This document shows, in pieces, positions 57,367 to 57,778 of a DNA stretch of 64,000 nucleotides. A program made the translations under genes and the position numbers. A model generated the notes under the pieces. That model was not told where the DNA came from. It worked only from the letters and a program-made list of their open reading frames with translations, and did no database searches. The stretch is from Escherichia phage vB_EcoM_PTE-Eco15. The stretch's first letter is position 1. Each line of letters begins with the position of its first letter. The stretch lies in the sequence record PQ352352.2. One strand, given 5' to 3'.

Positions 57367-57385
57367 AATAACGCGTGGCGGAAAT

Positions 57386-57733
57386 ATGAATTTTAATTAT
57401 TACCCTATTCTGTTAGAAAAAGACGAGAAACAGCCAAAATGGCAAGGTCCTCAGTTTATTAAAGGTGTCTATCAATTAGTAGTTCCTAAAGACAAGATTT
57501 ATAGTAGCTGTTTCACTGAATCCGCTTGCAGTATTTTCGGTAATAGTTCTCCGTATTGGAATTTTGACATAAAGCTGGATAGAAATATCGATATTTGGTT
57601 GAAAGCTATGGATATTGGTAATATCACGTTTGATGAGAATAATTATCATATTATTGGTCGCTTTTCCAAACGCGGTAAAGAATTATATTTCACACCTGAA
57701 ATTGAGAGAAAATTTGATGCTAAACCGTATTGA
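57386..57733 (+). CDS. Hypothetical protein between frd and td
   Basis: 115 aa ORF. Confidence 0.5.
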   Translation: MNFNYYPILLEKDEKQPKWQGPQFIKGVYQLVVPKDKIYSSCFTESACSIFGNSSPYWNFDIKLDRNIDIWLKAMDIGNITFDENNYHIIGRFSKRGKELYFTPEIERKFDAKPY

Positions 57734-57778
57734 TTATTCAGCTTCATAAAATGTATTATAATTTATATAAGGTACTAA

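Follow-up and report, generated by a model that had tools for sequence, protein, structure and literature searches.

Organization of the frd-td locus in phage PTE-Eco15

The DNA analyzed here (the window) is a 64,000-nt stretch of Escherichia phage vB_EcoM_PTE-Eco15, and all positions given for this phage refer to it. Its frd and td genes are separated by a gap of 412 bp (57367-57778), inside which there is a single ATG-initiated ORF of 115 codons. The PTE-Eco15 Frd protein is 98.4% identical in amino acid sequence to T4 Frd (tblastn). The original prediction for this locus stated that the frd stop and the td start overlap as ATGA in T4, and this is correct: in NC_000866, where both genes lie on the minus strand, frd occupies 145109-145690 and the end of td is at 145112, an overlap of 4 nt. 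Likewise, its description of about 410 bp containing a 115-codon ORF with no assignable features is borne out by the coordinates listed below and by scans of the 115-aa protein against Pfam, NCBIfam, and PADLOC, none of which returned a match. The td exon boundaries were set from the 861-nt intronless td gene of phage AndreasVesalius. The locus contains the following features.

56785-57366, + strand: frd (dihydrofolate reductase), 193 aa, with its TGA stop codon at 57364-57366; taken from the ORF list and the sequence
57360-57368, + strand: direct repeat copy 1, TAAATGAAA, covering the frd stop codon; 11 of 12 positions identical if stretched to 57371
57367-57385, + strand: spacer of 19 nt between frd and the ORF, AATAACGCGTGGCGGAAAT, containing a weak GGA Shine-Dalgarno-like element
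57386-57733, + strand: 115-codon gene of the PHROG 1928 family, with an ATG start; predicted small beta-rich fold with one helix
57734-57778, + strand: AT-rich spacer of 45 bp 5' of td (17.8% GC), with an AAGG Shine-Dalgarno-like element at 57769-57772
57741-57764, + strand: candidate MotA-type middle promoter, by consensus match only (GCTTCA, 12 nt, TAATTT; TATAAT at 57757-57762)
57776-57784, + strand: direct repeat copy 2, TAAATGAAA, covering the start codon of td; offset of 416 bp relative to copy 1
57779-58327, + strand: td exon 1, 183 codons; boundaries inferred from lengths
58328-59343, + strand: td group I intron, 1016 nt, carrying I-TevI at 58459-59196
59344-59655, + strand: td exon 2; boundaries inferred from lengths

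An 81-aa ORF (56540-56785, + strand) lies immediately 5' of frd, and its stop codon overlaps the frd start. Phages T2, RB3, and HY03 have this ORF (97-99% amino acid identity). It is missing from T4 and RB69, in which the distance between frd.1 and frd is only ~70 bp.

Conservation of the 115-codon ORF

Across six Tequatrovirus copies of the ORF, dN/dS ranges from 0.01 to 0.11, with up to 35 synonymous versus 11 non-synonymous differences; the comparison of PTE-Eco15 with JQD51 yields 32 and 11, respectively. The translated protein matches the PHROG 1928 HMM with an E-value of 3.1e-36, residues 4-111 aligning with positions 2-125 of the 126-position profile, and the JQD51 copy matches the same profile with an E-value of 3.1e-35. 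The protein is identical (100%) in phages JK1, slur04, and REP2 and 99% identical in RB3 and T2. The PHROG 1928 entries RB3_232 (AIT72968.1), T2 XYW65485.1, Lutter QLF82259.1, AR1 ar1_242, and bas42_0068 (QXV75922.1) represent the same gene at the same position. Its third-position GC content (29%) is close to that of frd (27%) and td exon 1 (26%), indicating a native composition.

When 1.84 billion representative proteins were searched, 38 clusters matched. We filtered this set by removing two low-complexity artefacts and one 37-aa fragment, and the remaining members are all stand-alone proteins of 95-139 aa; the two artefacts are the long proteins P0036 and P0045, which match many unrelated Pfam families. 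Four residues are invariant throughout the family (W19, G91, K95, and G97), and five others are nearly so (Q16, G27, Y29, F93, and F102). PHROG 1928 is a family restricted to T4-like phages. In one 195-aa protein of NCBI origin, P0014, the last ~35 residues are identical to the C-terminus of the family form found in Klebsiella phages and the N-terminal 160 aa are unrelated, so P0014 may have arisen by recombination or else reflects an error of assembly or annotation.

Judged by the way its sequence has been conserved, the 115-codon ORF is a genuine gene and not a chance reading frame. The lack of a known domain in the 115-aa protein and the weakness of its Shine-Dalgarno element could be taken as signs of a non-coding interval, with the ORF open by chance or a pseudogene in decay. 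This reading is refuted by the conservation pattern and can be regarded as extremely improbable: the ORF is under strong purifying selection, its frame is intact in 563 records, full-length homologues retain conserved motifs at identities as low as 17-30%, and the predicted structure of the protein is a confident one.

Three alternative occupants of the frd/td junction

A tblastn search with the 115-aa protein gives matches in 563 phage records. In ~362 of these the identity is at least 90%, and in these the gene is always found between frd and td; 357 records cover the whole PTE-Eco15 junction at the DNA level. Carriers at 90% identity or above include T2, RB3, RB18, RB27, RB33, RB10, RB68, AR1, PP01, and wV7, and AndreasVesalius also has a copy. 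A 60-bp probe spanning the T4 junction, by contrast, finds the T4-type compact junction in only 32 Tequatrovirus records, chiefly T4 isolates; the others are RB55, RB59, vB_EcoM_112, G28, F1, FN, FL12, FL18, HY03, SG1, JEP6, and G2133. FL18 carries a Mosigvirus label, yet it is T4-type at the frd/td locus. The junction is also compact in RB69 and ~143 Mosigvirus records, with the same 20-nt sequence as in T4.

The third allele is a 68-aa gene (PHROG 9550), present at 90% identity or above in ~135 records and joined to frd and td through ATGA and TAATG overlaps, as in Yersinia phage fPS-65 (extracted locus L005, 1664-1870). We considered whether the 68-aa gene is a deletion derivative of the 115-aa gene and rejected this, as the two sequences are unrelated. 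Between Tequatrovirus and Dhakavirus the 68-aa gene hardly differs; its identity falls to 79% in some Klebsiella phages and to 68% in Kanagawavirus, and homologues of 43% identity occur even in Phapecoctavirus-type myoviruses, outside the T4-like phages. The 202 bp that separate frd from td in Dhakavirus JS10 (NC_012741) are annotated as non-coding, but they encode a 68-aa protein (extracted locus L033, 1599-1802) that is 98.5% identical to fPS-65 g232c (PHROG 9550). The gene call was missed in this RefSeq genome.

The frd/td junction is therefore a three-allele cassette site in Tequatrovirus, Mosigvirus, and Dhakavirus, occupied by the 115-aa gene (the commonest state), by the 68-aa gene, or by nothing. 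The original prediction held that a gene had been inserted at a junction that is compact in the reference phage. The gene is indeed extra relative to T4, but most close relatives of T4 have it (~362 versus 32 records), and this leaves the insertion itself unsupported. It was further proposed that the ORF would be ordinary if T4 and close relatives carried it at this position; the relatives T2, RB3, RB18, and AR1 do carry it, whereas T4 itself does not. The 115-aa gene is an ordinary accessory gene, and hundreds of genomes already list its product as a hypothetical protein. Full-text literature searches found no paper that discusses the frd/td junction or the 115-codon ORF, and no transcript, protein, or phenotype data for the gene.

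Synteny and tandem paralogues in other genera

Homologues of the 115-aa protein with 30-47% identity are encoded directly 3' of frd in Jiaodavirus (Merci), Kanagawavirus (PEi20 and Entb_45), and Moonvirus (Merlin), and further homologues occupy the frd-td slot in Gelderlandvirus-, Karamvirus-, and Risoevirus-type genomes. A scripted scan placed the gene between frd and td in all 25 of 25 family-bearing loci, and the family gene of NHEP29, CC31, and Cronus is likewise found there. Thus, in each other Tevenvirinae genus sampled that bears the family (at least six genera), the family occupies the frd-td slot. The amino acid identity of the PTE-Eco15 ORF product to its counterparts is 45% for PEi20 and 38% for Merci, and the corresponding values for Frd are 48% and 45%. 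The divergence of the ORF therefore parallels that of Frd, which fits co-divergence with frd.

Several genera have two tandem paralogues in the frd-td interval, one short and the other lengthened by a PTIxEY loop, and hhalign relates the two with a probability of 94-95% and an E-value of ~1e-7 to 1e-8. The second frd-td ORF of PEi20 (extracted locus L009, 2317-2673), Merlin (L010, 2287-2634), and CC31 (L035, 1783-2133) is the diverged long-form paralogue, and the annotations of these three phages do not reflect this tandem duplication of the PHROG 1928 family. Kanagawavirus Entb_45 also has a 68-aa gene immediately 5' of td, 68% identical to the Tequatrovirus version.

Exchange between lineages and mosaic phages

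Some RB69-type phages carry the 115-aa gene, among them NHEP29, whose frd gene is 97.6% identical to that of RB69. Between NHEP29 and PTE-Eco15, dS is 0.71 for the ORF and 2.8 for frd, so the cassette must have passed from one lineage to another. NHEP29 is a mosaic of RB69-type frd and td with a 115-aa gene attached to frd by ATGA (extracted locus L034, 1294-1641). Phage JQD51 (L006) is also a mosaic; its frd is Tequatrovirus-like and its td is closer to that of RB69 (88.9% nucleotide identity). In RB3 (L003, 1897-2511) and JQD51 (L006, 1083-1700), frd has two additional A residues ahead of its stop codon (TATATAAAAATGA) that displace the stop, and the Frd proteins of these phages have ~11 more C-terminal residues, overlapping the start of the 115-aa gene.

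Exon 1 of td falls into two haplotype groups that are ~84-86% identical to each other. The PTE-Eco15 td intron (58331-59340 tested) is 99.5-99.8% identical to those of T4, T6, and SG1, whereas PTE-Eco15 and T4 share only 84.5% identity in td exon 1. A near-identical intron beside a divergent exon is the signature of a mobile intron that moved into a divergent exon background. All five of the T4-type compact phages examined have a td intron (T4 and, at extracted loci L028-L031, HY03, G28, FL18, and F1), with I-TevI truncated in three, but roughly 40-50% of records contain the intron, which occurs with both of the other junction alleles too. A link between the compact junction and the td intron is thus suggestive only. 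Intron homing may carry the compact allele along, since 549 bp separate the junction from the site of the intron.

Junction repeats and the direction of change

Alignment shows that the T4 junction is equivalent to the PTE-Eco15 sequence minus 416 bp, and that exact copies of the 9-bp repeat TAAATGAAA, one over the frd stop and one over the td start, delimit these 416 bp. If 416-bp deletions are placed arbitrarily in the window, a fraction of only 3e-4 have boundaries with at least 9 bp of microhomology. Coding partly constrains the repeat (...YK-stop in frd and MKQ... in td). The stop/start motif AAATGA joins frd to td in T4 and RB69, to the 68-aa gene in fPS-65 and JS10, and, as an ATGA overlap without the 19-nt spacer, to the 115-aa gene in NHEP29. 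Re-use of AAATGA at gene boundaries could provide the short homology with which recombination drops or swaps cassettes.

Because diverged family members occupy the frd-td position across other Tevenvirinae genera, the gene is most likely ancestral at this position, and the ATGA overlap of T4 would be a derived, gene-less allele that arose as a 416-bp deletion between the two copies of the 9-bp repeat. Parsimony across genera favors loss of the gene in T4 to a fairly high degree, and we consider this direction of change probable. A recent transfer of the compact allele from Mosigvirus to T4 was considered as its source and rejected, since frd and td exon 1 of T4 are only ~63% and ~79% identical, respectively, to those of RB69. 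In their flanks, the compact-junction Tequatroviruses are not clearly closer to one another than to T2 or RB3.

Several observations sit less easily with a loss in T4 and would suit the opposite history, in which the compact ATGA junction is original and the 115-codon gene is a foreign or mobile cassette inserted in this lineage. The identical 20-nt junction is found in two genera, in T4 on the one hand and RB69 and the ~143 Mosigvirus records on the other, so compactness must be either recurrent or old, and the compact state may even be ancestral for the clade of Tequatrovirus and Mosigvirus. The 9-12-bp direct repeat that flanks the insert could be a duplicated target, and ATGAAATAA, just 3' of the frd stop, resembles a vestigial td start, which an insertion that duplicated the junction would explain equally well. 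The cassette also moves between lineages, as NHEP29 and JQD51 illustrate. We nevertheless regard an insertion as unlikely, for the gene is the majority allele and is present in T2 and RB3, its 30-47% homologues in the same slot of at least six other genera diverge in parallel with Frd, its base composition and GC3 are like those of neighboring genes, and transposase, endonuclease, and repeat machinery are all absent. Taken as a whole, the account in which the ORF is a genuine ancestral operon gene that was lost in T4, that is presumably expressed, and that encodes a putative binding or adaptor protein has, in our estimate, a probability of about 0.8.

Candidate expression signals

The 115-aa gene probably forms part of the frd-td-nrdA nucleotide-metabolism operon of T-even phages. 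It would be co-transcribed with frd and is presumably expressed; its start codon is 19 nt past the frd stop and has a weak ribosome-binding site. The 45-bp spacer on its other side may supply td with its own ribosome-binding site and a MotA-type middle-promoter-like sequence. At 57741-57764, the spacer fits the MotA pattern, a GCTT(T/C)A core 11-13 nt 5' of TAnnnT, as a match to the consensus only, and the candidate MotA box has an A in place of the T before GCTT. The middle-promoter pattern has 27 matches in the window against 6.9 expected, a four-fold enrichment, and the annotation of phage Lutter places a promoter at the same place, 5' of td. A weak sigma-70-like match also covers 57730-57759; such matches occur at chance level. 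No terminator-like hairpin was found within 56500-58500, and within 56500-60000 the Rfam models had chance matches below threshold only, with no RNA element in the frd-td interval. With a ribosome-binding site and a promoter-like spacer of its own, td would be translated without coupling to frd, unlike in T4, and if the candidate sequence is functional, td would have its own promoter in such phages.

Predicted structure and possible function of the 115-aa protein

We modeled the 115-aa protein with AlphaFold2 and a 14-sequence alignment, which gave a pLDDT of 84 and a pTM of 0.78. The model predicts strands at residues 6-12, 27-34, 38-40, 48-50, and 62-64, a helix at 68-76, and strands at 80-82, 86-96, and 99-104. 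In a Foldseek search of the PDB, the best match is non-significant (E = 0.28), with SSB, RPA, and CheW-type barrels among the hits; the top structural neighbors, all non-significant, are nearly all OB-folds. The strands-helix-strands order of the model is compatible with that of OB-folds (HIN, RPA, Teb1, S1, and SSB), and most family members are mildly basic, with conserved Trp, Lys, and Arg, although the structural scores do not reach significance. The pI lies between 7.7 and 9.6 in 36 of the 42 family members. Matches in BFVD are to uncharacterised proteins only, and the named ones come from the T4-like phages PM2, Muldoon, Cronus, Ah1, and phiAS5. A Pfam scan of all 42 family members gave no match, and profiles built from alignments of 8 and of 42 sequences found no credible one in the PDB. 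Marginal matches to a segment of the TagH ABC ATPase (E = 0.005-0.04) and to dynein are implausible and were taken as chance. As far as the model can tell, the family has a fold without a solved relative, and no catalytic motif was found in the protein.

The protein is dispensable, since T4 and RB69 lack the gene. Based on its fold class, its size, its position in the operon, and the viability of T4 and RB69 without it, we consider that its most likely role, albeit with low certainty, is that of a non-enzymatic binding or adaptor protein in early or middle infection, with nucleic acid or protein as its partner. The databases suggest other functions. Several records, including the BASEL annotation bas42_0068, label it a putative homing endonuclease, and a free-standing enzyme of this kind would explain the presence/absence polymorphism in a region that has the true homing endonucleases segG, mobE, and I-TevI. 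This possibility (GIY-YIG, HNH, LAGLIDADG, or PD-(D/E)XK) is very improbable and is largely refuted by the absence of any Pfam or NCBIfam domain, PDB profile match, or nuclease fold. The label glucose-1-phosphate adenylyltransferase in phages SF2-1, pSe_SNUABM_01, and BW-1 is spurious, as 115 aa are far from the ~400 aa of an NTP_transferase and there is no Pfam or NCBIfam match. With no domain or fold match, both labels lack support.

A host-takeover or counter-defence factor merely housed in the frd-td operon, its variability reflecting host-specific selection, is a rather unlikely explanation, though less so than a homing endonuclease. The protein is small, has no enzymatic domain, and is dispensable in T4 and RB69; the gene is polymorphic in its presence and is replaced by another at the junction, its tandem paralogues have expanded in several genera, and its neighbors include other small non-essential ORFs (frd.1-3 and nrdA.1-2). 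Host-specific selection, however, is hard to reconcile with near-invariance in Tequatrovirus, where dN/dS is low and there is no sign of diversifying selection, or with a fixed place beside frd over deep divergence, and neither PADLOC or other defence-related matches nor an experimental link in the literature points to such a role. PHROG 1928 could instead be a dedicated thymidylate-cycle partner, a small subunit whose binding to Frd, to Td, to both, or to their mRNA adjusts dTMP synthesis or the assembly of the dNTP-synthesising complex. Strict adjacency to frd, translation coupled to that of frd in most genera, and divergence at a rate like that of Frd are compatible with this idea, which we nonetheless view as quite unlikely. 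If it were true, the gene would have escaped notice for 60 years owing to its deletion from T4, the model phage. A binding or adaptor protein of the general kind outlined above remains the preferred reading.

Comparison with other variable loci of T4-type phages

As T4 lacks the 115-aa gene, it has neither a T4 gene name nor genetics. The gene resembles the small non-essential ORFs between gene 32 and nrdA of T4 (frd.1/DUF5417, frd.2, frd.3, nrdA.1/DUF4326, and nrdA.2) in being small, co-oriented, tightly packed or overlapping within the nucleotide-metabolism cluster, and variable among T-even phages, but its family is unrelated to them in sequence and has no Pfam model. In the hyperplastic regions of T4-type phages, small ORFs undergo modular shuffling as PeSL cassettes (Arbiol et al. 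2010, PMC2839356; Comeau et al. 2014, PMC4122927). As in PeSL shuffling, small ORFs at the frd/td junction are gained, lost, and replaced between conserved genes, with short repeats at their borders and exchange among relatives. The borders differ, however, from those of PeSL cassettes, which consist of an early promoter and a stem-loop; at frd and td they are a 5-9-bp stop/start motif, (T)AAATGA(AA), without a terminator-like hairpin. Like segG, mobE, and I-TevI, the gene lies between or within conserved nucleotide-metabolism genes of the same region and is polymorphic in its presence, but unlike them it encodes a protein without a nuclease motif or fold. Its synteny over deep divergence argues for vertical inheritance and homologous exchange, not homing.

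These comparisons indicate that T4 is unrepresentative at the frd/td junction, as it is at the slot 5' of frd, where the 81-aa gene is missing, and that genes that appear extra when measured against T4 may often be T4 losses. The homing endonuclease and adenylyltransferase labels attached to the 115-aa family in databases should not be propagated. As a conserved and strongly constrained family without a fold relative, PHROG 1928 is a reasonable, if non-urgent, target for work on T-even accessory genes, and the alleles of the frd/td junction, which appear to be swapped at a re-used ATGA motif, offer a small example of how genes may be gained and lost in tightly coupled phage operons.
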